A DNA stretch of 56,414 bases, filler included, from Bipalium vagum (taxonomy: Eukaryota), in the NCBI GenBank assembly GCA_037834085.1. It is 3 parts of 3 records of this genome, joined end to end, with 100 filler letters (N's around TTAATTAATTAA, not from the genome) between each part and the next. Parts side by side here need not be neighbours in the genome. Positions count along the whole stretch, not along the records: positions 39,551 to 56,414 come from JBBMKC010089336.1; 2 more parts are not named here. One strand, given 5' to 3'. Positions within the stretch are counted from its first letter, which is position 1, and every line of letters begins with the position of its first letter. The position numbers were made by a program, and so were the translations under genes. The notes below the pieces were generated by a model, which saw nothing but the letters and a program-made list of their open reading frames with translations, ran no database searches and was not told the origin of the DNA. Below are positions 6,497-56,414 of this stretch, one piece after another.

Positions 6497-8081
6497 CACT
6501 GCCGTCCATAAGTTTAATCGGACTTAATAAAATAGCTTTTTTATAACAAAATGGTACCATTCTAAGATTTTTTAAGATAACGATAAAATAAATAATTTTA
6601 AAACACTTTAATTTTTTTATAAAAAATAACACGTATTATTACACAACAAGCACATTAACTAACATTTAAATTATTTTCTGTTTTCATCAAAATGACCACC
6701 TCTAGATTTAATAAGAGCCTGACGTATTCTAGGTAGTCTGTCACACAAATTTTGTAAGTACTGACCATCAACAGATTCCCAAATACTTTTAAGTGATAAC
6801 CAAAGATTGTTTTTTCCACTTGGAGGATTTTTTCGCACCTCTCTATCCAAATGATCCCAGAGTTGTTCTATTGGGTTGCAATCAGGGATTTGAGATGGCC
6901 AGGTAAACCTTCTTCGGATTTCTCTCTTAAATACTCCTTTACCACTTTAGCAGTGTGTTTTGGATCGTCGTCCTGCTGGAAAAAAGAATCCTTCGCCAAT
7001 TAATTCTGCTCCACAATTCAAAGCATGTTTCTTTAAAAATGTCCAAGTAGACTTCTTTCGTCATTCTTCCATCAATTTTCACAAGTCTTCTGACTTGTCC
7101 ACCCCCAAAACAACCCCAAACCATGATGTTTCCTCCCCCATGCTTAATAGTTTGCACTGTACACTCTTTCAGCATAATTTCCCAAGGCCGACGACGGTAA
7201 AATGATCAACGCTTATTGCCAAAAATTTCGATTCGTCTGACCAAAGAACTTTATTCCAGTCTTCCGGTGTCCAGTTATTATGTTCTTTGGTCCAGGTTAA
7301 TCGCTTTTGTTTATGGGCTTTTGTTAGACGTGGTTTTTGACTGATATACAGCCTCTTAGGCCGACATCAAGCAAACGCCGTTTTACTGTAGTGGTGCTGA
7401 TTTTTGTTTCATGAGAGATATTGAAATTATCAGTGATTTCTGAAGCTGAACTTCGGCGATTTCTCAAAGAACTGATCATAATATACCGGTCTTCCTGTTT
7501 TGAGGTTGAACTAGGTCTTCGGATCGATTGCGGTCATGGAATGATCCTGTTTCTTCTTTCCTTTTGATTGTTTGACGTAACGTAGATCAATTTCTCGGTT
7601 GAAAAAACCCAGATAATGCAAAATGTAGATTTCTACTATTCTTTCTAAGCTTAATTCCTTGCTTCTGGCCATTTTGAAAAATTATTTATTGAATTGAAAT
7701 GGCTTTTTAAAGTATAATAAATATTTGTTTTCAAATTTTTATAAAGTATTTTCAACAGACTTAAATTAAGGCTAAATTCAGTAAGTTTTGTTTAATTTCA
7801 ATTATAAAACACTCTTAAAAGCTTGCATAGACATTCTGATAATAAACATAGCTATAATAATTTTATCGGATTGTTTAATGTGATAAATAATTTTATATAT
7901 CATTTTTTATATATTACTTATATTTTATTAATACTGGCGTCATAAAATTTGATAATATATCTTGGTTTATAATATAGCTACCATATATTAATGTAAATTT
8001 GTCTATATCATCTCTTTTTTAAGTTTTAAAACAACATGAATCAAATTCTTTCAGGTGCGATTAAACTTATGGACGGTAGTG
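6497..8081 (-). mobile_element. Full-length but inactivated Tc1-like DNA transposon (about 1.6 kb)
   Basis: TIRs CACTGCCGTCCATAAGTTTAATCG (6497) and CGATTAAACTTATGGACGGTAGTG (ends 8081), each flanked by TA. Transposase on - from the ATG at 7672, with VLWSDES, TIKHGGGNIMVWGCF, FQQDDDPKH and QIPDCNPIEQLW motifs, broken by frameshifts and stops. Confidence 0.93.
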
Positions 8082-8464
8082 TATAAAAAACAAGGTACTT
8101 AATTACATATTATTATTATATGTAATTATTAGTATATAATAATTATTAGTTGATTCAAAGATTAAATAGAATTTCCCGTTAATTTCAAGTAATTACTATA
8201 TACTATATTTAAGGTCGAAAAACAGTTTAAGTTTGACGAGTCAGACAACTGGATGACATTTAAATTTTTTTAATAGATTTGGTTATAATTACGTATAATT
8301 ATGTAATAATTGAAGACAAAACAGTTTAAGATATTGTAGTCAACTAGTTCAATTAAATCAAATAAAACTATTAATAACACTGATTTAAACGAATATCAAT
8401 TTCTTTTTAATTAAGGAAAGAGTAAATAATTTACACATATATTATAGGCCGAGTATAAAGTAAA

Positions 8465-8760
8465 GCCAAGCCTCTATTAATGTGTAGAAAATGCAGCATG
8501 CATGTAGAAACCCATATCCACATCTTAAACCACTGTAAGCTATTCCCTCTAAGTAAAACATAAAAATGTACTATTTAAGAGATATATGATTCGATGTAGA
8601 ATTTGATTTTAAACCTATTGAATCTAAAAATAAAAAACCTCGACCAGGGCTAATTATTAGAAATAAATTCAATAACATATACACTTATTAGATATGAAAG
8701 TGCAAATGATATAGAAATAAATTTAAAAACCTCATGAGACCTAAAAAATGACAGTCGTAA
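8465..8760 (+). mobile_element. 3' fragment of an RLE-type non-LTR retrotransposon (CCHC knuckle + start of restriction-like endonuclease)
   Basis: Translates CRKCSMHVETHIHILNHCK (CCHC), followed by KPRPGLII..LDMK (degenerate PD..D.K). Confidence 0.6.
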
Positions 8761-9539
8761 AAAGATAGATTTAAATAGAAATCAAATCAACATCCTTTCA
8801 AATTCCAAACAAAAATTATTTTAAGTTAATTAAAAAACTTTTTTATGGTTGTGACCTATGCCAAAATGGTCTGAAAAATTATTTTTCAAATAACTATAAG
8901 ACAAATATTTAAATTTTAAATCTATGTATTTTTTTATATTGATTTTAGATATATCATCTTATAATAACACTTTTTCTAACCCCCAGGAATATGAAAATAC
9001 TGGGTATATACTACAGTATAGCCCTTTTAATATTAGACTAATCGTAAATAAGGATATTTATATATTCATCATAAAAAGACTTTCAAAAAGATTCCCAGTT
9101 CAAATAAGTATTAGAACAACCAGAACTATGTTTCATTGCATAGTCACCCAAATACGAATAAATCCCACAAAAAGTAAAAATATAAATATCAATGTGATTA
9201 AAAATTAAAATAATTTAAATTTATCAGCATGTCTAAAAGGAAATCCGATATCCCCTCAACATTTATTTATTTATAACGTAATTTAAAAACAATCTTTAAG
9301 GTAAAACCCACCATTCTTTAAATAGTACTTCGCGGGTATTTGGAAATTCATTTTTAAATAATTTGACTTACATTGTTCCGTAAATAAATTTATTCCTCTT
9401 TGTAAACTCAAGAACAGTGTTTGAATATTTCAATCATTCCATTTACATTCTAGTTTTTATCTTAGTTGCATTCAGCAGAATGAAATCTTCTTCATCTTCA
9501 CATATTTTGCAAAAAAATCAATATATATCCACCAGAGAA

Positions 9540-9980
9540 AGCAATATCACAGTGGTGGTTAAATGGTGTGATTGATGATTTTTGTGGATGGTCTCCTGTC
9601 TCTCAAATCCATAATTGGTAAATTTACTTCAAATAATTTTGTAAATATGTTTCAGAAATACATTGCACCAACTATAAAGTTGAAAATCGAAAAGAAAATT
9701 TTCTTTCAACAAGACAATTGTAGGGCACATACTTCAAGATTGGTACAAGATTACCTAAAATATTCAAATAAACAGGCTATTCAGTGGCCATCTAGAAGTC
9801 CAGATCTCAACATAGTGGAAGATGTCTGGAAAATTATATCAGATTTACAATTACGCGTAACAGACAGTATCCATATAAAAAGGAGACAAGACAAAATATC
9901 ATTGATTCATATGAATTACTAAGACCTCGATTTTGTAAAGTTTTAATGTCCAAAGGGAATTTGTATAATGTGTAATAAAT
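9540..9980 (+). mobile_element. Tc1-like DDE transposase fragment
   Basis: ORF 9572..9922 contains FQQDNCRAHTS and QWPSRSPDLNIVEDVW. Confidence 0.85.
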
Positions 9981-10237
9981 TATTGATAACTCATTGGTGT
10001 GCGAAAAAATTGTCCTTTCTTAATTTTCAATATTTTCATATCTTAAGTTCATGTATCTTAGAAACATTATTAAAAGATTAGATACTTAAAATTTATTTAA
10101 CTAATGTATGTGAGAAAATCCATTAACCTGATCCCATGAAAAATCCCCACGGCGGGATTTTGTCATTAAACAAATGACACAAAAAAATTATTATCATTAA
10201 TTTTAAAATATTCTTATTAATATTATTTAAAATTTAT

Positions 10238-10340
10238 TATTATTATTAATTAAAAATTATTATTATTATTAATTAAAAATTATTATTATTATTAATTAAA
10301 AATTATTATTATTATCATTATTAATTAGAAATTATTATTC
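10238..10340. repeat. Tandem repeat of about 23 bp (ATTATTATTATTATTAATTAAAA) x3-4
   Basis: Direct reading of the repeated unit. Confidence 0.8.
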
Positions 10341-10997
10341 AAAATTATTAGTTTTCAAAACCCAACAATTGAAACAAACCATTTTTTCTTACGAAAAGTG
10401 GTTTTCCATTGATAGACTAGATGGCTGCACAACATATTCAAAGAAAACAAAATATTTATCGTCCGACGCAGCAGAAAAAAGGTGAAGGAATTTATGGTAT
10501 GACCTTTGGTTTTGCCAAATGGTGTCCTGTCATACAAAACATTAGAAAGAAATTTCAAAAGTCCTGCATATATATAAATACTTTTTTGTACAAATTTGTG
10601 AATTAAATTATGGGAAGATCTTCTGGTTCCAACAGGATAATTCCAGAAACCACACGGCAAGGTTAGTTAAGAGTGGACGACTGCTGCGCATCTCTATTGT
10701 TATCAAGGGAGACTCGATCTGAAGACTTAAATATAATGGAGAACATCTGGCAGATCTGTCCCTGATTTTAAGGAAGAAATACAGAAAGCGTTTTTTGTTA
10801 TTCAATACCACCAAATGAGAACTTATTATGAATCTTTATGAGACTTTTAAAAGTTGTTTAGTCAAAGTAATTCTTTTATAATGGTAATGAGAAAAAAAAC
10901 GTTACGTAATTTTTCTAGTTTCTAGATGTCAATAATTAATCTCACCTAAAATAAAAATGTAAATATCATAAATTTAATTAAAAATGTGAATCCAATA

Positions 10998-12087: not shown

Positions 12088-12647
<560 letters not shown>

Positions 12648-12972: not shown

Positions 12973-15900
12973 TTAAATAGAAACACTAGGTAAAGAATCT
13001 GTTCCATTAATAGAAATTGTCGCATTTGTGCTGCCATTTTGAGAATCTGAAGGACTTCCTTGGGAAACAAATAAATCTTCGTGATTATGACAAATAAACT
13101 AAATTGAAACAATAAATTTTTAGTTAAAATTATCATATCTTACATATTCGTTTGATAATTTGATCAAGTGGTCAAAAAAATGTAAATTACAATATGATGT
13201 TGAACATTCGGAACAAAAGTGGTTAGAGATTACTCCACACTCATCACAATAGTGCAATGGGCATAACCACAAGGTTTTTGGGGTTTTGCTTAAATGCACA
13301 CATTTAAGATGATAAACTTGATCACAATTGTCATAAGAACAAATTATTTGGCATCTAGACTGACCACATACAAAACAGTTTTCATCTTCTTTTATAATAT
13401 TCAATGAACTATTTGAATGTACAGAACTAGCCTTGGATTTGCTCTTACGATCAACAGTTTTTTTCTGAGTTTCAGATTTCTTAATATTTTTTTTAAGGTT
13501 GCAATTTTGAGACTTCTTTGTTTCCGTTTGTTGTACTTTATCTAATCCAGCGAGATCAGTCGAAGAAGCTACTTTTGGTGGATCACCCAAAAAACCCGAA
13601 CAATTACTAGCTCCACATTTACAGGCTATTTTACTTTGTCCCAACGAAAAGAAATTATAGTTGAAAGTCAGTTCCTCGTTAGGTTCAATATCACTGAATA
13701 ATAAATAAATTGAAAATAACAAACACTTGAAACTAACTGAAGGGCGAATAATCCAATTCGTGTATCACCATTAACAGTCCATTTTTCTGTATAAAGATTC
13801 GGAGAACAGGAATGATTCATGAAACGGCTGAGGTTAGCCGACGGACCGGCATCTATTATTCGTTGATTATCTAATTCCATCATATAAAAATTAGTGACAT
13901 TGGAATCGTGAGCTTTCTTCAAACGTCTTGCTGCTTCCGACTCATCAATAAGCTCTCCAACATACTCATTCACGAAATCACCCTATAACACACAAAATCA
14001 TTAGAAAAAGGTTAGGCCTGCTTTTTTCTTTATTTTTTAAATTCTTTTATTGATCAAAATAAATCAATAAAATCACAAATTTTAAGTAAAAGTTGTTCTT
14101 TTAATATAATATTGATTTAATTGTAAAACTGAAAAAAAATGTAAATAACAAAAAACCTTTTTAACTGGTTGCAATATCCTCAAAGCCCATCCACGATCAT
14201 TAGAAAGAAAGACTTCCTGTTTCGGATATTCTCGCCGAGTGAATCTCTGATTACGACACATTTCACCGTTTCGACACACCTGAGGATGACATTCGTACAT
14301 CAAATTACGATTCATACACTCACTAGTACGACCACAGGGATCGTGGGAATTTTTATCCGGTCTACATTCACACTGTGGAACTTCAGACAGATCGGCAATC
14401 TTATTTATTCGAACATTTCCAATTGGAATATTGACTTTTATCGATCGATATGCAGTTGGCTTACTTTTGCGGCCAAGAATCGACTCCCATTTCGATTGTC
14501 GGAGTTCGAGAACTCTAGCGGCAATTTTAAGGCTTTTTCGATAATCACGATCTAATTTTGAACCACCATCATCGTCGTCGACATCAAATCTATCATTAGT
14601 CTGGTTGTTTTCATTGGAACTGTTGTCATTAATTTTTTTAGTATCTCCACCGTTCTAAGATATTACATAATAATCAGATATCACATGATAAAGTCGGTAC
14701 CAATTCATCACCCTCTTCAAATGGAAATGCATGAGTTTTGTTCATCCAATGATAATCGTTCGATCCGAAAAACTGAACAAGAAATTGACCTTCACTATGA
14801 GCAGATTTCAAAACTCTTTCCGGGGCATGACTTTGATGGATTATTTGGCCCGGCCACCATCGATAACTGCCTATTTTTAGCCAATATATTTCTCCGTATC
14901 GAGGATATTTTCCCATTTCACATTCTTCACAAATATACAAATCTGGGATCTAAATTTTTCGATAAAGTATGACAAAACCAAAAACGCAATACTTCATCAA
15001 TATCGGCACATTTTTGATGGAACGAGGCCGGACATCGTTCACAACAAATCAAATTTCCGCCTTTAGAGCAAATAAAGCACCAAGAAACGTTATTAGCTTT
15101 TGATTTTGATGCTTTTAATGGTCTTTCCAATTTCCAAAGATCTCGGTTTTGAGAATCATTAAAAGACAAAATTTTGAAATGTAAAGAATTCAGTTGAACA
15201 ATCCCGTTATTGACACAATTCATGAAAGGAGCAACTGAAATTTCCGAGCATCCACCCATCGATAAATGTTGTGGACAAATTATGTAATTGGCATTGATCT
15301 GAAAAATGTGCATTGGTTAGAAATCAATAAAAATGCTGGAATTTAATCATTAATAAAAAATTTGTATTACTTCTTTAGAACCTGCTGGAATACACCACTG
15401 ACCTTTGTGGAATGAGCGTGGACACATTAAGCATCTAATGTGATTGGTGCATTGTCGCACCATTTCAGGATTGTCCATGTAACAAGAGTGGCAAGTATGA
15501 GATGGACATGTCAATGATCCACTTCGATTATAATTGATCAATTGTTGGTATGGACCGTTATACAGACAACTGAAATGATAATATCGACCACAGCTTCCAG
15601 TGGAACATTTCATCATTTCATCTTTCTTGTCCATTTTGTCTAATTTCTGCATATAATAATAAGATAAAAATATGATGTTATTAATCTAAAACTCAATATA
15701 GTACCTGACAAACAAAACAACGACGAACATTTCTATTGCAATCCACACATTTATGGTAATTTATTTCTTTGGTGGTCGGATCCTTAGATGTAAGATAATC
15801 CATCAGAGCCACCATACAATCAACATGAAACTGCTGACCGCAACCACCTGTACAACTGATCACATTCTGTTGATCATTGTCTTGGATACAAAGGAAACAA

Positions 15901-17032
15901 AATAAAGTCCTTTTACAATTAGAAAAGAGAGGCAATTTTAACAGCTCATATTCATACTAAGGTATCACACAATGAACGTGGAATAAATTTGGATCAATAG
16001 TGAAAATTAGAAAGAAAACCATACGTAACTGTCATTGGAAACGATGGCTGTTCGACAATCCTTAGAAGACTCTTTCACGGAAACGTGTTCAGAATTGCGG
16101 TCACTGTCAGAAGTTGTGGTTTTTATTCCCAGTTCTGTGGATTTTGTTATAAAAAAGTCAAAAAGTACAAATGTTACCTCGATATGAAATTCCATATATA
16201 TCAATCCTGTCCTCCACAGACATCATCATCGCTTCTTCGGCTTCCTTCCATGATTCAGTAAACATTTGCATTTTTGATGAACATACTGCAAATTGTTGAA
16301 GAACCTTTAAGCAACAATTAATTGCAACATTCAAATAGTTAGTCTTACATATTTAGGAGTATTTTTTTCCTGAAGTTTCTTAATGTGGTTATCGAATTTC
16401 GATTTTCCTTCAAATACCATAATATCTTTAACATTCACCCATCCTCTCTCAACAAAAGGACCAAAATATGCTACATGAATTGTTTTCTTGTTATTTAGTT
16501 CTTTGTAAAACGTTCCATCAGGGCATTGAAAAATCATACATGGCCACCACGGATGAGATTTTACTTTGGCCCATAAAATTTTACCTATATAATAATCTGA
16601 TTGAAAAGTTTTCGTATCATATTGGTTCGATTTTCGTTGTGAATTTGTTTTAACAACTTTTGGTTCTTCCTTTATGATTTTAAAGGGATATTTTCTTTTC
16701 TTTGAACTAGATTTTCGACATCTAAGAGACGTTTGACTTAGACTACTTGAATCTTCAAAATTGACATTTTCTTGTTTTATTCTATATGGACTGTCATCCA
16801 CAAAATGAATACTTTGAACATCTGAATCAGTCATAGGATCAGTAGATTCACTTAAATAAGAATCATTTTCAAGTAAGGGTGAATTTCCTGATATTGAACA
16901 ATTTTCTGTTTTAATAAACATCTCATTTACTGAATCTGAAATGATTTCACAATATTCTTTTTCTGATATTACTACTTCATTTACACAACTATCCAATTCA
17001 TCAATAAAATAATCTAGCCCATCATCAACCAT
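12973..17032 (-). CDS. NSD: NSD-family histone H3K36 methyltransferase (PWWP-PHDs-PWWP-AWS-SET-postSET-PHD-C5HCH), multi-exon
   Basis: PWWP ([14 protein letters not shown]), several PHD fingers (e.g. [24 protein letters not shown]), second PWWP ([12 protein letters not shown]), AWS ([21 protein letters not shown]), SET ([13 protein letters not shown]; ELTFNYNF), post-SET ([13 protein letters not shown]) and terminal PHD-C5HCH, completed by the last exon FICHNH..SI* (stop at 12973). Short GT-AG introns connect the ORF pieces. Confidence 0.95.
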
Positions 17033-19061
17033 TATATGGAGTTTTATTCCGTTTAGGAAGTATATTACGAAATTAAATAATTAAAAAAATATATAAATTT
17101 ACGAAAATGTATCAAATTATTTAATCAAATTTAATCTGTTATTATTCAAACAAAAGTAACACTACAAGAGACAGAGACAGCTTAAATATTAACTAATTTC
17201 ATATTTAAAATTTATAGTATTTAAATTTAATTTTGTTTTTATAAAGACATTTTAAAGAATGTGAATATAATTTTTCAAGCACAAAAAATTTAAAGCCTAA
17301 CAGATATAGATAAAGTATGATCTAATATAAATTTATCAATTATTAACTGATTATTATTTAAAAACAACAAATTTATTTGCCTTTCAATATTTAATAACAC
17401 TGAATTTTATAAAAAAAAGAACAACTACGTTAATATATATCCATGAAAGTTGTCTTATGAAAATCGTTTTCATAATTATTCCAAGATTGAGATTTTTCGT
17501 TTTATTTATCATTTTAGAAAATCAAGAAATATATTTTTTGTTTCAAATTTAAATCAGAGGTTTTTGGTGAAAACATTGAAATTATAAAGAATTTCCAATG
17601 AATATAATTCTGCGAAATCTGACTACTGTTGCGTTTCGCGTCTAGTACTGATGAGACTGAAAGAGTGGCAGTGAGTTCAGCAGCCGGACGGATCCTTAAG
17701 ACCTGTTTATATGTCTTGCGTCGTTGTGTGCGTGTGGTTATGAGGGATCATTGGAGATGCATATTTATTGGAAAGTCAAGATTGTCAGTATGTCTGTTTG
17801 TCGAACGTTTACTGGAAAAAATTTTTTATTTTATGATACTGTTGGATTCTTTTTCTTAAGAAAAAGTTAGATTTTATTTTTCATAACGTTAACAATATAT
17901 GATTTTGGTTAATTAATGTAATTATAATAAATTATAACAAATGGTAAATTATAATTACCATTTTTCCATATTAAAAAATAAATATTTATTTTCATTGATG
18001 ATTTTAAGGAAACTTAATCCGTTTAATTATTTTGTAAATATACTTTTAATGCCAAATGTTATTATTGTAATTTTTTCTTTTTAATAGCATTAAACATTTC
18101 AACATCTCTGTATAAAACAAACGAGACTATTTTTAAATTCACAATAAAAATTTTAAAACCTTTTTTAAAAAATATAACGGTAATCCTATACTTTACTGGC
18201 AACAAAGTAGGTCAAATTTTAGCTTAATATTAAAAATACTATATATCTTTTTTATCAAAGAAAACCGAATAAAATGAACAAAAATATTTTTAATAAATTT
18301 TGAATATGTATAGTTTTGATAACCGATAATTAGTTTGGTAAATATTTGTTCACTTCAAATAAATTCTACGATTTTTGAAATGAGAAATAAAGGTAATCAA
18401 CTACTACTATACATATTATTACAATATAAGTGAAATGCAAAAATTTGACCTACTTTGGCCCCTCTAAAGTATAGGATTTCCAAATATAACATACACAAAA
18501 AACTTTTATTTCATATTTTTACACAAAACAGTAATTTAATATCATAATAAATTACATTTTTTACCCCCAAATGAATTGGTTTATTTGTTTACTATCATAG
18601 ATTGCAAAAGAATGCTGATATATGTAATCAAGTTTTTGTCTTCTGTCTTCATTAAATTATTTATATCATTTAACCTCCAAACCAATTTATTTTTGTTTAC
18701 TTTTCTCAATTCGTTGGGTTTGTCAAGGCACAAACCGTAATAATAATTAAATAATAACAATGATAAAATAATAATAAGAATATCTGTTTTTTCCAATAAT
18801 GTAGAAGAAATACATGAATTTCATAATTTTTTAGTCATTTTAATTGAGCGCTAAAATGAATATTCAAACAAATATATAACCTTACTATTTTATTAACAAA
18901 TCTATGTAAATTTTCACACAATAAATATATACTCTATTAATCCTTATTACCAGTTATCCTATCTTAAATGATTCGTGGGAAGCTGACTTTCAGTTTTGAG
19001 GGTTTCAGTACATCATTACATTTTATGGTAAAACTTTATAACTTATCAAAATTTTTATATG

Positions 19062-38019: not shown

Positions 38020-38440
38020 GGGGTCTTCCAAAAGAGGCTTTACTACTTTTAACATATTAAATACAAAGTAGTTTTTGTTTAAATTAAAATTAAATTAAGA
38101 TTAAATTAATATTTAACATTATTCTAGCTAAACATTTGAAAATTAAATATGGATCGTTATAACGGGCAGAAATTGTAAAATTTTTTATCAAAGCGGTAGT
38201 TCAATTTCAGTAACTGTTAAAAAATTAAATGCAAAATTTGGGAAAAACAACTGTCCATCAAAACCAACAATTTACTGTCTGGTTAATGCTTTTGAAGCAT
38301 TTGGCTCGGTAGCAGATAGACCAAAATCTGGACAACGTCGATCTGCGCATATACCTGAAAATATTGCAAGTACACGAGAAAGCATTGAAGACAATAAATG
38401 CACCTCAATCAGTCATGGAGCACAGGAATTATTATTAAGA
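38020..38440 (+). mobile_element. 5' part of a DUF4817/maT-like transposon
   Basis: MDRY..RAEIVKF..SISVTVKKLNAKFGKNNCPSKPTIYCLVNAFEAFGSVADRPKSG..R..ENIA..RESI...TSI....QEL. Confidence 0.8.
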
Positions 38441-39378
38441 ATGGTTTTAGAAAATCCAATTCATCGTATTAATATATTCTCTTTATTTTATAAATTTTGA
38501 ATTATTTAATGATTATGACCCAAACATTGTTACATTTATAAAAGAATTAACATTTATTTTATTTTGAAACCTTCGTAAATATTGTGCCTATAAATATATA
38601 ATGCTGTACCATATAAACAATAACCGGGAAATCAATTCTTAGGGAACGTTGAACAGTTTAAGATCAGTAATTTATTATTAATTAAACATATGTACTTTAT
38701 ATTGTTAACCAGGTTTTTGTTTTAATGGTCATATATTATTATTTCTTAATTAGAATAATAGGTATTAATAATTATTTGTAATTATTTATTATTAATTGTT
38801 TATTAAAATCTTTTGTATTGCCTATGGAATAAGCTCTATCAATTGTTACATAATACTTTGCAAAACCTTCCTTCGCTTCTTTTTTAATTCTTCATGAAGT
38901 CCTTCATCATCATTGTATGATTACTTTAGAAAAATACGACCATCATTTACACAATTATATAATCCATCAGCAACGAAGACAAATAGTGTCACCATGGGAT
39001 ATCATTTAATTAAAAATATTAGCTAAACACAGTCTCACTTTTTGAATTCAGTTCAAAAATGGTAGAAATTATTTTTACTGAAAACAAAACATTAAATGCC
39101 CTAAGGAAATGATCATTTTAAAGAAAATCATTAGTGAGAGTAAGATGGCGAATAATTTAATTTATAAACGATACAAAGTAAATAATATTATTTGATCAAT
39201 ATATACATTTAATATTTTGAATAATAAAATAAACGTGAAAGTAAAAAATTAAATTAAAAATATCCTTATCCTTAAAAATAAAAATGTTTTTATTCATCAT
39301 ATTATAAGGTTCGTGTTATTTTAAAAAATATTTCAAGATTTCAAGATTTCTCAGTAAAGAAGTTTAAATAAAATCTCC

Positions 39379-39550: not shown

Positions 39551-39699
39551 AATAATAATATATTTCATTAAATCTGATTAACCAAACAAACTTTTCAAAC
39601 TTGGACCTCACCTTTAATTAAAATTAAGTTATTTACTTTATAAAAATTAACCAACATTTATTTAAAATATTAAATATATTATATAATTATTTTATATAT

Positions 39700-42600
39700 A
39701 TCCCGCCGTCGACGAAGTTATATCTTCACGCAGAAAGGGATCATTATGGAAACAGCAAGGAAAAAGGAGAAGTGCACAAGAACGGAGCAGACATAGAAGC
39801 ATCAGTCTTCGACTAAATAATTACGGCAACGAGTTAAGAAAAAAAGAAAAAAACATCAATAGCTCATCAGAAGGAAAACGTAAACCGCAAATGCCTAAAC
39901 AAAGCTATGCTGTAAGAATTGCAGCCCATCAAGCTGCAACAAAAAAAAGAGATACAAAGATGAACATTATCCAATGCAGCGTTGTAGGGACCATGGTAAA
40001 TAGTAGAGAAAAGAGCAATCACGCTTTTATCAAATTAGAAGACAATTCCATAATATTTTGTCACAAAACAGGTATTGACTGCAGGATATGTAACAGAAAT
40101 ATTGGATTCAAAGCTGGTCTCAAGTCAGAAGAAACGGAAAGTACACTGCTGTAAATATCACGATGAATAACGGGCAAAACCTCGAAGACCATGTTGCCTT
40201 CAAGAACGCTTAAAAACTGCTTAAACCATTGCAGACATTCGTTGAAAGTAATGAAACATTAAATAAAAGATGCAAATCAGTAGGAAGGGCTGAGAGTAAA
40301 AGAAGAAATTCAAGAAATTCAAAAAACTGGAAAAAAGAATCCCCTTTCATCCCAATTACTGGAAACCAAACATGACGTTCTTGAAAAATGTTCCGCAAAA
40401 AAATAAATGAAAACTGCTCCATTCTGCAGACACTTTGCGAAATATTTTGCCTTAAAATCAGATAAACAGTCATATAGCTTCGAACTATGAGCAGCAGAAA
40501 ACAGCAGCCAGAGAATTACATGGTTCTCTAACCAAAAGTCTAGCGATACCAATAAACAACAAAATATGGATCATAATCCAATTCATAATGAACTGTAATC
40601 AGTGTAAAGCATATAAGCCTGACCTTAGGCTTACACGGAACTCTAAACCATCAAATCTCAAAGTAATGTTCAATAAAAGCATGAAACAAGTGATGGAGAT
40701 CATACGAAACATCGATGAACCAGAAATTAAGACATTTCCAAATCTTGATAACATAAAGGCGGCGTCAAGAAAAAATCGACAATCCCAGAACCGCCTAACT
40801 GGTCGTCCTCGATTTCTCCAATGATCAAGCAAGCTGAAAAAAAATTCGACTTTAGTCTACCCACCGCAGCTGATATCCTACAAACTCTGAAAAGCAGAAA
40901 CAAAAAATCATCCCCTGGCCCAGATGGGATTGTATATAACGACATCCTGATTGCTGACCCAGAAACCCTGATCTACGAAAATTTCTTGCAGACAATAATG
41001 CTTGACCATTTCTACAGACCCTATAGAAGTTAAGAGAAGGGTAAGACATGGTTGTCCATTATCTTTGTTATTGTTTAATATAACAATAAATACGGTTTTG
41101 ACAGAAAACTATAGATAATTCCTTCAGTTGGTATTTGCAGTACTTGCTTACGCTGATGACTTATCTGTCGTTGCCAACATGATTGGAGATTAGCAAAACA
41201 TGGTGAACAATTTGATTAATGTTATCCAGTGGTCATGGATGACAGTAAACGATTCTAAATGCGCGTTATTAAATCTCTCTATGAAGAAAATCGGACAGAT
41301 AACCATCAACGTCAGCCCTATATTGAATAATAAGTATGGTGAATGGCTCATATATTTGGGTATAGATAGGGGATTTAAAATTGAGCGAAACCCTCATCAT
41401 ACCTATGAATCAGTGACGAATCTGATGCGCAAAATACGCAAGAGTGGGCTATATCCCTGGCAGGCCGTAAAAGCCTATAAGACATTCCTCCATCCGAAAT
41501 TGATCTTTACGTTCCGCAACCATAAAACAGCGGTATCATTTTTAAATTGCTCTGAAAGTACGACCAAGAGTGAAGGTACACATTATGTACTAGATTTTAT
41601 TCTTAGGAAACATCTACGAAACCTTTTTCGCATTCACCGTCTTCTCCAATCGGATATTTATACTGTCCAATAGAATATGGTGGACTCGGTTGTATATCAA
41701 CATTTGATGAATATATAACCCAGTCGATCATACAAACTCATGGGATGGTGAACACATCAAATAAGAAAATGTTGAATCTAGCCTTGAATTCCTTAAAGTC
41801 TCAGTGAAACGCGACGACAGCAGAAATGGGCATTAAATGGTTAAACAAAGCACGCAATGAGGACCTACAAAGGTCTTGGTAGTCCAAAATTAGCATGGCT
41901 ATACATTATTTTGATAAGTACTACAATATTAAAATAGCCTTTCAACTAAACAACAACAGCGGAATCATTACAATCATCAAAGATAGAAATGAAATCACAA
42001 TCTTTGACAAATTCGCAACTCACCTGCTATGTTCATTCTTACATGAAGAAATCGGGGAAAAGATGTTTGAGAATTGGGCTAACTTGTGCAGCGCAGGCAT
42101 ACTGTCAAAAATAGTTGTCCTAAATGGTCGCCTAAACAAAAAACTGATGAACGGGCACCTGTGCAGTACAGATGAATGGTACATTATTCAGAAGTATTGG
42201 ACTAATAACTAAGAAAATAGTAACCAACCAATAAAAAATTGAAAATGGCCGGCAACTGTAGAAATTGCTATGGGAAGGAAGAAACTGCCTCACACGCCTT
42301 ATGCAGCTACATCAATAATGCCTATGGTACGAAAATGGTGTACGCGATATCTTAGTTGATTTGTAGTCCACACTTAAAAAGGAATGGGAAACACACGTTG
42401 AAAAGAAAGGAATTTTTTCAGCAAAAAACTTAATTCCTGTTATTCAATTAGTGAATAGGAGGCTTAAAATATACCTAATTATAAATGTCAAAATCCCCTT
42501 TGAATCAGAGATTTCTATCAAGGGCAATGACGAAACAAACAAACAAAAATATCAGACTTTGTTGGAGGAAGCTCAATCTGAGCTCGAAAGAACATGGTAC

Positions 42601-42900
42601 TACGATATCAGAACATTTATAATTGGAGCCGGGAGTTCGTGGATCCCCTCAAACTACGAAACACTCGGAGCATTTGGATTTATTATAGCAGAAATTAACT
42701 AAATTATGGAAAAATGTGCAGCAAGGACGATCACTAATACCCATAATATCTGGAAAAAATTCATAGCCAGAGCAGAGAAAAACATTTTAAAAATTCGCCA
42801 TCTCAATGAGAACCATATCTTTGATTTGAAATAAATCACTGTTTTTGTTTTTTAGTTTCATTTATTGTGTCCCGTACCTTTCCTGTGTTATTTTCGGTTT
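39700..42900 (+). mobile_element. Decayed RLE-type non-LTR retrotransposon, NeSL/R5/Utopia-like
   Basis: RT motifs KSSPGPDGIVY, RRVRHGCPLSLLLFN and VLAYADDL. Thumb region SGLYPWQAVKAYKTFLHPKLIF and YGGLG..DEY (NeSL-like). CCHC knuckle CRNCYGKEETASHALCS. Degenerate REL P(V)..II(N)VKIPFE..K.KY..L..FIIGA..SW. Multiple stops, frameshifts and internal deletions. Confidence 0.88.
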
Positions 42901-43129
42901 GTATTCGCATTTGTATTGTTAAACACGGTCGTGCTGTAATCATTATAACTTGGAAAAATTCTCTATAATCGTTAAATATCCTACATTATAGCCCTGATGA
43001 TCATAACTTAAAATGAAATACGTGTTCTCCTGTTATTTTAAAAGGATATCATGACCAACACTTTAAATACGGACATTTATTAAATATATATTTTTCTGTA
43101 GCACAAAGACAAAACAATGTGAGAGTAAA

Positions 43130-43452
43130 GAATTGTTATTATGATCTTCAAGCTTCTTTGTAAAAGGCAACAACGTCTTCACTATGTGTCCAGCAATTCA
43201 CACAGGTCTTTCCATGTGTGTCACCATGACAACACAAGACCACATTTGTCTTTGATGACTCAGAAAAAAATTGAAGAACTTTATTGGGACGTTTGGTTAC
43301 ATCCTCCATACAGTCATCATATTGCACTGTCAGACTATCATTTGTTTCGTTCACTGCAGGAGCACCTTGACGGGGTAAAATTTAATTCAAAGAGGACACC
43401 AAAAACTACTTATCTCGGTTTTTCAGCGAATAAAAAGACAATAAATGAATAA
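43130..43452 (+). mobile_element. Mariner C-terminal transposase fragment
   Basis: HHDNTRPH..WDVWLHPPYS..IALSDYHLFRSLQEHLDGVKF. Confidence 0.88.
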
Positions 43453-45985: not shown

Positions 45986-46872
45986 ATGTTCTTTTTGTCT
46001 GGGTCCGTTACAATTTTATTTTTCATTTCGATATTTGATACTGGCGCCAACAACATTTTCCATGTGACCGAGTCCTGCGTGTATGACTCATTTCAAAAAT
46101 GGCCAGAGACCAATTTATTCGATTGTGCTATCCAATGTACCCAGACTGGCTACAAAGCTTTTCATTTCGACTCCATTGGCTCACTTTGCCTTTTGTATGG
46201 ATTCCATGAAATATGCCAGTCCAATACTTCGTGTCCTAATGTGACTATTTTTATCAATAATCGATATAATGAAATGGTTTGTGTTATTTCATATTTTGTG
46301 TTAAGCAGTTATATTTTCAGTTCCATTCTGATGTTACCAATGTGAGATTCAAAATATTGAAAAATGTCAAAGAAAGCTTTGGTAAATTTGAAGTGTTAAC
46401 GTTTAAAAGTCAAAGTGAAAGTCAAACTGTTCCATTGCTATTGGGAAACAATGGTTTACCAATTATAATGAAGGGAACGTACAGCTATTCTGAACTAGTC
46501 GCTGTTCCAGATAACACATCAATTGAAATAATAAAAAATTTTAAGTCCTACTTGGGAGACAATAGTTCAAGAATTTATCTGTTTAAGGGATATAAAAAAA
46601 GAAAGGAAGAACTCTCTAAAGAAAAGAGGATCACTTTAATTTTAAATACTGGAATCACGGATTTCGACTATTTCAAAGAGAACATAGAGAACAACCATTG
46701 GAATATCATGATTGTCAATGAAAGTATCTTAAAAGATCCAGAAAATGCCAAAAGGTTATTGGAACTGTTTGGAATGTGTGTGGCAAAAAAGAGAGATAAG
46801 AAAGAGAAAATTAAGGAAAACATTTGTAAAACTACGTCAAATATCAAAAAGACAAAGTGTAGAATGATATGA
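45986..46872 (+). CDS. Secreted protein: signal peptide + PAN/Apple-like domain + uncharacterised C-terminal domain (2 exons, about 280 aa)
   Basis: Exon 45986-46276 (MFFLSGSVTILFFISIFDTGA..; C..NLFDCAIQC...YKAFHF....LCLLY PAN pattern). A 44-nt phase-0 intron 46277-46320 (GT..TTTTCAG) joins in frame to exon 46321-46872. Confidence 0.7.
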
Positions 46873-52199: not shown

Positions 52200-53050
52200 C
52201 TCAACTTTTTTTATTTATTTTTATCTTTATGTTTTAATTACTGTTTTTTTAATTTGAATAATTTTTTGTTTTATTTTATTTTTTTACATTAAATATTTTA
52301 AGTTTTTCAATTTGTTTTTTTTATTTTTCTATTATTTTTCATTTTATTTATTTTTATTTTTATTTATTTATTTTATTTTATTTTTTATTTTTGTTCTAAA
52401 AATAATTTATTTCGTATTTATTTAAAATATGTTTTATAATTTTTCTTACTATTTAAAAAACAATTTCTATTCCTCTTTTTATAAATTTATATATTTTAAC
52501 AATTATTTTAAAAAATCTTTTTTTTAATTTTACTGACATTTTTATTATATATTTTATTATTTTTATTTATTATATATTTTATTATATTTATTTTATATAA
52601 AATGTATTAACGTGGTTTTATTTATTCATATTTTATTATTATTAAAAAATTTTTTCATTTTTAACTACTTTTATTTTATTTTCTAAATATAAATTTCATT
52701 TAATTTATAATTTTTAAAAAAAAAATTTTGTTTATTTAAGAATAAATCATATTAATAATTATTTATTTTAATTTTATTTGCATTATTTATTTTTAATATT
52801 TTTCCTTTTATTTAAAACGTCGAATTTATTTTATGTTTTACTAATTATTTTAATTTCACCATTTTGTATTTTATTTTATTAAAATTTTTTTTTCTCTTAT
52901 TAAAATTTTTTTTCACTTTTTCCATTTTTACCTTTATGAGTTTTTAAAATGATATTTATATTATTAATTAATTTTTATTTTATTTTATTAAATACGTATT
53001 TTTTATCATTTAGTTTATTTTTATATTTATATTTTTATTATTTAATTTAT
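52200..53050. repeat. T/A-rich low-complexity tract
   Basis: Almost no G/C; irregular TTTTA/TTAT units. Confidence 0.85.
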
Positions 53051-53369
53051 TATTAATTATTTTTTCCAGGAAAGAACTCTGAAGACAATGAAAATTCGAG
53101 AAGTTGGAGAGATAAAATGAAATTTTGGTAAAATAGTAAGGGTCTTGAGAAAAAAAACCTTTTCATATTCCATAAAATATGCCATGGTTTTTGGTTTAAA
53201 TAAATGACTTTCTTCATTTCAGTGTCAATACTTTCAAACATTTTAAGGATAGTTGTCATTTCATTTTATGAGCTCCTCTTCAGATTCCGTCCAATTGTTT
53301 ATTTACTAAATGCTTTCAAAGAAAATTCAAATAAATAAATTTCATATAAAAAATAAATAAACATGATAA

Positions 53370-53825
53370 AAGTATTATTGAGTGTTTGGTGGTCCGTTAG
53401 GAGTGTTATTCATTATGAGCTGTTGCAACCGGGTAAAACGATAATAGCGGATGTGTATTGTTCCCAGTTAGATAGAATGAAGGAAAAACTTGAAAAGAAT
53501 TAGCCAGCTTTCACCAGCAGAAATAAAGTAATTCTTCATCATAATAACACACGGCTATACACTCCAGAAAATTAAGAACTTCATCTGGGAACAGTTATCT
53601 CATCCTCCATATCGTCCTGATATCGCGCCTTCTATCTATCATATTTTCCGTGCAAAACAATATTTTTTGGTCGGAAAAAATTACGATTCCCATGAAACTA
53701 TAAATATAGTCATCCAAAACGTCTTCGATTATAAACCACGGAATTTTTATAAATATGGCCTTATGAAATTAGTTTCTAAAGGAAGTTACATCGTACAAAA
53801 CAATAGTGTTTGTGTATTTAGTTAA
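53370..53825 (+). mobile_element. Mariner catalytic-domain fragment
   Basis: VLLSVWWSVRSVIHYELLQPGKTIIADVYCSQLDR..VILHHNNTR..HPPYRPDIAPS.Y. Confidence 0.88.
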
Positions 53826-53979
53826 TATATCTGTTCTGCGACTTCTTTTATTATTTAACTTTTCAATAAAAAACGACATTACTTATGTGTCGACCTAATA
53901 TTATTGACAATGTTATTATTACATAATATTGGTGTGCATTGATTATATAAATTCTTAAAATTCTTGTATCGTTTATTTC

Positions 53980-54990
53980 AGTTACCGAATGACAAGAAAA
54001 ATATCCGAATTTAATAGACATATCATAGTTGTACTTAAGAAGAGTGGGTGAACCAGGAATGAAATTCAATTAGATTTATAGAATCAATATTTCACCAGTG
54101 TATCTAGATGTGGAATGCAAATAATTTAGCAAAAGCTTTTAAGAACAAATGAAACAAAAGATTTAGATCGCATTGAAGACCCCGAAAGATTACTCAAAAG
54201 AATTTCAAGAGGAAGCAATAACCGTTTTCCTTGGCACAATTAACCAATCACTTCTTATCTCAAAACAGTACTATAATATCATCGAGTACCGTAAGAGGAA
54301 TGCTCAAAAAATAGGGTATTCATGGTTACAGAAGCAAAGGAAACCTTTCCTATCAATAAGACAAAGACAAAAGAGAGTGTTATGGACCAACAAGCATAAG
54401 GAATGGAATTTTAATAATTGGAAAACAGTTGTCTTAAGCATTTTCCAGTGTTATAGCCAGCATGGAAAACATCGGGTTTTACGGACAGCAAATGACAAAG
54501 GCAAACCAGGAAATATTCACCAAAATATGAGTCACGGACCTAAAATACATGTAAGGGAATTCTTTTCTTCGACTGGTGTGGGATTATTAAAGAATGTAGA
54601 AAGTTCCATGGATGCCAAATTATATCAGACAAGAATAAAAAATGACATTGATGTTGTTGCTAAATGCTTAGTATGCCCTGAGAATAATTTCAATTTCCAA
54701 CAAGACATGGCACCTCCACATAGAGCTTTGGGAACGTATAAATACTTTAAAAGTACAATTATTGGTGTGCTAGATTGGCCAGGAAATTCTGCGGATGTCA
54801 TCTCAGTCGAAAATATTTGGGGATATCTTAAGCATGCAATGCAACATGTTCTATGCCATTCCAAAGAACAATTGTGGAAAGCAGTTCAACAGCACTGGTA
54901 TTATTTGGATAGAAAATATTGTCAAAATCTCGCGAAATCAATGGCAATATGAGTTATCATTAAATTATCAGGCAACGAATCCTTACCCAA
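53980..54990 (+). mobile_element. Decayed Tc1-like transposase
   Basis: N-terminal HTH (ISEFNRHIIVVLKKSG..), RPRKIT, KPFLSIRQRQKRVLW, FQQDMAPPH, VLDWPGNSADVISVENIWG. Confidence 0.88.
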
Positions 54991-56334
54991 ACTAGAAATA
55001 TTCAAAAAACCCTTAGATCAACAATTATACTCATCGAAAGACAACCAACCCTCAGAGGATTGTCTTGTACAAAAATAGCACAACAAAACATATTTTCTGA
55101 ATAATAACAGAAATCTCTTCTAAAATATCTTCGTCGACTCAGTTAATCATAAAAATCCTCTTCTAAAGTAAGAAATTTCCGCTCCAATTTTCCTGATTTG
55201 CTGCCGCTTACATAAAAGATCGAAAAATGTCCATTATCCGAGGATTGATGTCTTAAATGAAAAACTTTCCAAAAAATATTCCTGAATTTCCCTGCCTAGA
55301 AATACTTTTTTGAATTGGATGATACTCACCTAGAGCTAGGTCCAGAGACTATCTCGTATGATAGATACGGTCAAAGCTATCTTCATCAATTCTTGTAATT
55401 GTCAATAGCAAGCGATGCGGCTTTGCAATGTTATTCAAAACCACCATTTTGTAGCGACGACGACTTCTTTTATAACTTTAAAGATTTAGTGTGAAATAAG
55501 ATGAAAAAATTGACACAATGTCAGAAGAGAGACATTTAATGTTATTCCATATGTCCATGATGACAGGTTGACATGAAAATAAATGTGATCTTCACATGGT
55601 CACTCTTGACAATAGATTTTGATAAACAATTTTATTTGAAAGCATTAGTAAATATAACCATTTGGACAGACACTGAGGAGAAGCTTCTAAACAAGACGCC
55701 TCACTCCTAAGGATTACTCTCACGGAAATAACATAACATTTTATATAGGAGTAGGAAACATGCTTAGAAATCCGCTTTTATAGATTTAAAGAGTTCATAA
55801 AACGAAATGACAACTATCCTTAAAAGGTTTGAAGATATTAACACTGAAACGATGAAAGACATTTATTTAAACAAAACACTACATATTTAGTGGTACGTGG
55901 AAATATTCTGTTTCCTCAAAACCCCTACCATTTCATCATTTATTCCATTTATGTTTCCAAGCCTTAAACGTTTTTCTAGGTCCATGTTCTGAAAAAAATA
56001 ATTTATGAAAAATAAATTAACAAGAAAATAAAAATATCAAAATATACCAAATGATAAAATAAAATATTAATAATAATAAATATAAATTAATTAATAAAAT
56101 ATATCATTTTCAAAACTTCATTAAAGTAAAACTGGAAAATAATAAGAAATAATAAGAAAAAAAATAAATAAAAGAAAAAATACGTTTTTCAAAAAACTAA
56201 AGTATAAAATAGTAAAATGAAAAAAATATTAAGAAATAAAAATAAATCCAACGTCTAAAATAAAAGATAAAATATTATAAATAATTAAAACAAAATAAGT
56301 AAATAATAAAATAAATTAGTTTTTAAATATTTTT

Positions 56335-56414
56335 AATATATATTTAATAATATAAATAATATATTTAATAATATAAATAATATATTTAATAATATAAATA
56401 ATATATTTAATAAT
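56335..56414. repeat. 21-bp tandem repeat (AATATATTTAATAATATAAAT) running off the window end
   Basis: Three to four direct copies visible. Confidence 0.85.

Follow-up and report, generated by a model that had tools for sequence, protein, structure and literature searches.

To our knowledge, single-ORF retrotransposons with a restriction-like endonuclease (RLE) have no ORF1 chaperone. Holding and unfolding of the RNA in these elements are thought to depend on the reverse transcriptase (RT) region and on host proteins. For Utopia and NeSL elements, parts of PMC4640811 describe zinc fingers and Ulp1 as N-terminal modules, plus RNase H in the Utopia elements of oomycetes, and in the same source R5/LIN is the flatworm lineage of the NeSL clade sensu Kojima and Jurka 2015. 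The Ulp1 protease occurs in nematode NeSL and in some Utopia elements and is not universal in the clade. For double-stranded target DNA, R2 relies on N-terminal zinc fingers and Myb (parts of PMC13580325, PMC13188248 and PMC5678591). Cold-shock domains (CSDs) have been described in retroelements of another type, with 46 bird endogenous retroviruses (ERVs) carrying them after several captures (PMC12287698, in part), and host YBX1 and CSDA associate with L1 ORF1p (PMC3753637, in part). The main texts of PMC4640811, PMC13580325, PMC5678591 and PMC13188248 never use the word 'cold', and that of PMC13188248 does not contain 'OB-fold'. No CSD in non-LTR, RLE or NeSL elements was found in the literature searched, and the original R5 paper or Repbase entries may already note one.

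We analysed a stretch of 56,414 nucleotides from Bipalium vagum (GCA_037834085.1), made of three parts joined end to end and called the window here. It contains a copy, dead and with an internal deletion, from a multicopy family of RLE-type non-LTR retrotransposons. The copy is about 3.4 kb long and lies on the plus strand at about 39701-43095, both ends being approximate. At 39701 the GC content rises from 0.14 to 0.39 and the AT skew from none to +0.36, and both are unchanged as far as 40800. The 3' end probably lies near 43095, where an AT-rich run and a T stretch resemble by eye the ends of LIN15_SM of the NeSL clade. No Rfam ribozyme or unusual folding was found at either end of the element; a hammerhead-like word near 42993, spotted by eye, was unsupported.

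The relatives P0002, P0003 and L001 served as tblastn queries to map the parts of the element. RT, CCHC knuckle and RLE are present in the order seen in RLE-type non-LTR retrotransposons (tblastn with P0003 and P0002), and the best PDB matches of P0003 are R2 structures. The RT motif -1/0 region (PDLR..., SSPGPDG) lies at 40618-41000 (+) and is frameshifted. Significant protein-level likeness to relatives begins here, at about 40618, as shown by the P0003 alignment (0 of 500 shuffles as good; tblastn E 2e-9); likeness to L001 at 40226-40327 was not significant, being equalled by 31 of 500 shuffles. At 41000-41005 (+) about 143 RT codons are deleted, the alignment leaping from residue 296 to residue 440 of the L001 frame. 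The RT core (41005-41640, with YADD at 41149-41160 (+)) is followed by the thumb and a linker, to 42107 (+); this part is broken by stops and frameshifts, and its core is 36-43% identical to P0003 and L001. The CCHC zinc knuckle at 42257-42304 (+) is 62% identical to residues 728-756 of P0003. The endonuclease at 42385-42834 (+) is 38% identical to residues 789-915 of P0003 (as far as 42762), and its frame ends at 42832-42834. The catalytic PD...D-K acids of the RLE are absent from this copy; together with the RT deletion, the stops and the frameshifts, this bears out the preliminary description of the copy as decayed.

The RT fragment had 530 protein relatives at E<=0.001, and the RT search among longer proteins gave 1 match. 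Three related metagenome loci were found, all without their N-terminus, one of which (L001) is interrupted by a mariner-like piece; no related viral contigs were found. A quick tree was built from partial RT sequences of 106 of 178 proteins, with SH-aLRT as its only support measure; rows with fewer than 150 aligned residues or 800 aa were left out, four being kept by hand. The window RT grouped with P0003 and P0004 (SH-aLRT 98), inside a clade of 23 rows (95), 10 of which have Pfam Ulp1. The Ulp1 profile also detected P0108, P0111, P0016 and P0020; it found nothing in L001 or P0003. The element had been called NeSL-like, a name that as a clade assignment means placement by neighbours ('NeSL-clade-like'), since the tree holds no named NeSL-1, R5 or LIN row. 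No relative scored above 3 bits with a CSD profile (0 of 178, the two closest relatives being without their N-termini), and Pfam CSD was found in 0 of the 63 relatives scanned. An alignment search of proteins of 1646-4700 aa gave 30 matches, none with a precomputed PF00313. Another RLE-type RT relative, P0047, also has an unusual N-terminal module, a GATA zinc finger at residues 178-212 (E 4.8e-10).

Around this one copy we found no flanking tRNA, no Rfam match near the gathering score and no rDNA flank. No target-site duplication was convincing, the only candidate being an AT-rich 17-mer pair. As for the traits of the R2 clade, the 5' ORF has no Myb or C2H2 match. At 39701-39738 (+), three short motifs follow the order given for the antisense 28S target of LIN24_SM/LIN26_SM (PMC4640811, in part) and are more closely spaced. 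They are possibly a worn remnant of a 28S target, a weak reading since the first motif recurs at 10149-10157 (-) in an unrelated hairpin.

That hairpin, at 10139-10161 (-), is short, perfect and GC-cored, has A and T runs alongside, adjoins a tandem AT-rich repeat and could be the end of a mobile element. The window also holds a second, very decayed RLE-element remnant at 8483-8536 (+), with a CCHC knuckle and then a PD-like stretch, and Tc1/mariner-like fragments at 38147-38497 and 43129-43449, flanking the element, and at 9572-9919 and 52638-56414; these fragments include an inverted pair with 72% identity. Two host genes are present, one for ribosomal protein S18 at 12215-12595 (-; Pfam S13/S18) and one for an NSD-type histone methyltransferase at 13123-17080 (-), with PWWP and AWS detected by Pfam and SET and PHD-like parts recognized by eye. 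A 199-codon open frame at 46273-46869 (+) has no significant Pfam match.

Upstream of the RT and co-oriented with it, a peptide-coding ORF had been reported, and indeed a stop-to-stop frame runs from 39687 to 40154 (+). Whether this frame starts at the ATG at 39891 is doubtful because majority letters listed for other copies (run X1, see below) abolish two stops upstream, in a different frame. Within this frame, a segment at 39981-40124 (+) resembles beta1-beta3, the loop and the start of beta4 of a CSD-like OB domain. Paired by eye with Escherichia coli CspA (locus L005), it is gap-free from G7 to I21, in line with the G-x12-FI spacing noted earlier, and it keeps F20, I21, F31, H33 and I37. 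W11, F12, G17 and G19 (CspA numbering) are lost, so the loss of conserved W/F residues stands as well; the conserved Trp that ends beta1 is Asn in the window copy, and none of the 40 differences (of 583) listed for run X1 changes it. The preliminary description had recognized RNP1- and RNP2-like motifs. For RNP2 (V-F-V-H) this held, the segment's I-F-C-H being aligned to D-V-F-V-H of the profile; in RNP1 (K-G-F/Y-G-F-I), F and I are kept and both glycines are replaced. The loop after beta3 is about 3 residues longer than in CspA and presumably closer in length to that of Y-box proteins.

The same description saw only beta1-beta3, and here the data disagree with it. In another plus-strand frame, 40136-40162 reads ...NGKYTAVNIT..., like the C-terminal end of CspA, and in a glocal frameshift-aware scan 40142-40165 aligned to the last nodes of the profile, with a frame crossing near 40141. 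The likely end of the CSD-like domain, comprising the beta4-beta5 turn and a beta5-like strand, is thus at 40121-40165 (+), after a frameshift near 40122-40141. The simplest cause of the frame break would be a small deletion in beta4 of the window copy. Run X1 depth is 143 at 40090 versus 551 at 40020, which would fit a nearby indel; none is among the 12 of 53 indels listed. Plain hmmsearch gained nothing across the frameshift (5.3 versus 5.2 bits); the second half was used by the glocal scan alone. Beyond the domain, a basic linker at 40166-40617 (+), broken and about 150 codons long, leads to the RT, and it holds no Ulp1 remnant, the Ulp1 profile having no positive score in any of the element's three 5' frames.

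The CSD profile was made from 17 bacterial and phage sequences and contains no eukaryotic CSD, which lowers its sensitivity. Against these sequences, hhalign gave E 0.0035 and a probability of 9%, with 0 of 60 shuffles as good, over beta1/2-beta3 only. The glocal scan of both strands of the window had its best match at 39981-40165 (14.3 bits), followed by 10.3 and 9.9 bits. When the 5' region was shuffled 300 times, no shuffle reached 14.3 bits (maximum 10.2). Profiles with permuted columns reached this score in 1 of 200 cases within the 5' region and in 25 of 200 somewhere in the window, the latter count being the fair test since the site was chosen by eye. In the ESM Atlas, residues 24-87 had PF00313 clusters at ranks 1-3 of the named clusters (0.82, 0.81 and 0.80) and at rank 7 of the unfiltered list, Atlas scores below 0.9 being leads only; the 10 best family matches were all of the same clan, as they also were for one third of shuffled proteins.

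A comparison with Pfam CSD PF00313 had been proposed at the outset; run on the ORF or on pieces of the broken copy, it gave no match at E<=10 (Pfam cut-off 27 bits), and we therefore file the segment as CSD-like and not as a PF00313 member. The single OB-type Pfam match was PF01336, with E 0.038-0.14 on beta1-beta2, far under its 27-bit cut-off. No CSD-type match was found in PHROGs, NCBIfam or PDB sequences. Among proteins 154-2000 aa long, the N-terminal peptide had 18 candidate homologs, of which none reached E<=10. In phage sequences, tblastn of the peptide gave 1 match, at E 6, which was put down to chance. The structure prediction also proposed earlier, a single-sequence AlphaFold model of the broken copy in its unshifted frame, had four strands and a pLDDT of 48, and the fold search with it had a best Z of 3.0 and no OB match.

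Contigs of one public run (X1, n=1804) were used to look at other copies; depth in this run is no copy number. The differences, indels and loose ends listed were 40 of 583, 12 of 53 and 6 of 437, so a junction or unfavourable letters may be hidden. Three of the differences listed lie in the segment. At 39995, all 10 covering contigs have A, which changes Met to Ile; at 40020, all 11 have T, which changes His to Tyr, indicating that the RNP1 aromatic is present in the family; and at 40090, 6 of 6 have C, which turns the second Cys of the window's CxxC into Ser. With these majority letters hhalign improved to E 0.0003 and a probability of 39%, and the CSD profile score rose by 4.8 bits, a gain that sets of three random changes equalled in 9 of 2000 cases; 4 of 200 column-permuted profiles reached 19.1 bits somewhere in the window.

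The contigs cover 30 of 30 bins of 39710-42825, and 10-13 of them span the sites listed in and just before the segment. Summed over the contigs, depth starts at 79 in the first bin and is about 460-560 across the segment; ahead of the RT core it is 600-850, and at the 3' end it reaches 7,000-10,500, individual listed contigs having a depth of about 20-70. Such a climb from 5' to 3' is what a 5'-truncated LINE family shows, and it places the segment within repeated DNA. Eight contigs have loose ends just before 41004, at the RT deletion, and none of the 6 loose ends listed (of 437) falls 5' of 41004. A contig joining 39964 to 41004 was disregarded for its shortness, with only 30 letters to a side. 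On the strength of this unbroken multi-contig cover rising from 5' to 3', the segment probably belongs to the element. That it holds a real OB/CSD-like fold is likely, with somewhat less assurance, and for both to be true, a real CSD-like domain and a part of the element, the chances are a little better than even. The preliminary reading of a CSD-like OB fold gained from the Atlas, the home-made profile and the majority letters and lost from the missing PF00313 match and the unusable fold model; language-model neighbours, CSD profile and majority letters make three weak, partly independent lines that are consistent with it.

If the fold is real, it might still come from a different repeat with a 5'-truncated RLE copy inserted beside it; this repeat could be a tyrosine-recombinase or LTR element or a retrocopy of a host Y-box gene. 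Clear homology to RLE relatives starts only at about 40618, the depth is uneven over 40126-40437 (260, 979 and 281), no contig bridging segment and RT is among the 8 of 1916 pieces listed, and ERVs are a precedent for mobile CSDs (PMC12287698, in part). However, strand, A-rich skew and GC content are uniform from 39701 on, cover passes from segment to RT without a gap or, among the 6 of 437, a loose end, and neither long terminal repeats nor large direct repeats were found. A single Y-box pseudogene fits poorly with the lost W/F residues and the many covering contigs. We regard an origin in another repeat as clearly unlikely. An OB fold of another type, anticodon-binding or RPA-like, would keep hold of the displaced strand of the target DNA and not of RNA. 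The PF01336 match would suit it, as would the absence of the CSD-specific W11 and glycines, but that match is far too low in score, the F-x-H...I motif and the CspA-like C-terminal end suit a CSD better, and the Atlas neighbours are CSD and S1/CSD-like, making this very unlikely.

There may also be no fold of this kind at all, the likeness being that of a poorly conserved 5' leader of the element that mimics a CSD motif by chance. This would explain why no library match for the segment was above threshold, why the score is matched somewhere in the window by 25 of 200 permuted profiles, why the AlphaFold model has low confidence and no OB match, and why a CSD occurs in none of the relatives examined. 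A chance match should nevertheless fade when family letters replace those of one copy, and here they improve it; the Atlas, a separate method, indicates the same family, and the beta5-like end lies at the right distance in the other frame. We consider chance rather unlikely. The remaining possibility starts from the CxxC, which had been taken as zinc-finger-like: a C2H2 finger of the R2/Utopia N-terminal type would follow a truncated beta-hairpin, as CRIC...GLKS of the window copy resembles C-x2-C-x9-L-x2-H. The CxxC is private to this copy, however, the second Cys being Ser in every covering contig, so a finger of the Utopia type is absent; there is also no downstream His in frame and no C2H2-type Pfam match. 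This possibility is already largely refuted and hardly credible.

We thus favour, with a probability of about 0.5, the reading that the element's protein had at its start a divergent, cold-shock-like OB domain, which would grip single-stranded RNA of the element itself. The segment would be a five-stranded CSD-like barrel, split in the window copy by the small beta4 deletion, and would form part of the reading frame of the element, about 200 codons ahead of RT motif -1. The domain may have been taken long ago from a host CSD gene, replacing the Ulp1 module of sister lineages. The surviving Tyr/Phe of RNP1 and Phe/His of RNP2 would stack on unpaired bases, and the domain could act as a built-in RNA chaperone, attaching in cis to the template so that this stays unfolded for target-primed reverse transcription. 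A function as RNA chaperone or strand-holder is plausible, the former by analogy with the known behaviour of CSD proteins and with YBX1/CSDA on L1 particles (PMC3753637, in part). The chance is about even that a flatworm-type RLE LINE lineage swapped its Ulp1/zinc-finger front end for a captured CSD, in effect an RNA chaperone of its own, Y-box-like and joined to the RT.

Compared with the NeSL clade, the window copy likewise has one RT-CCHC-RLE unit, and its nearest RT relatives bear Ulp1-like proteases, but it has neither Ulp1 nor a zinc finger and carries the CSD-like segment instead. With R2 elements it shares the layout of RT, knuckle and RLE and, if the fold is as proposed, a nucleic-acid-binding N-terminus, whereas R2 lies in 28S rDNA and the window copy does not. 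Its segment has in common with the CSDs of CspA and Y-box proteins the beta1-beta2 register, F20, F31, H33, I37 and an A-x-N-V-like C-terminal end. It is probably, though unproven, a new variant of N-terminal module for RLE retrotransposons, CSD capture by retroelements being already known. A built-in CSD would show that elements of the RLE class can acquire a module devoted to binding single strands, and it would offer a candidate part to R2-type gene-insertion tools; this matters only if an intact copy confirms fold and fusion. It would also parallel the capture of CSDs by retroviruses: the bird ERVs are likewise retroelements with a host-type CSD, but they are LTR elements with CSDs that Pfam detects, whereas the window copy is a non-LTR RLE element with a strongly diverged segment below Pfam detection. 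If our reading is true, CSD capture extends from LTR-type elements to the oldest group of retrotransposons.
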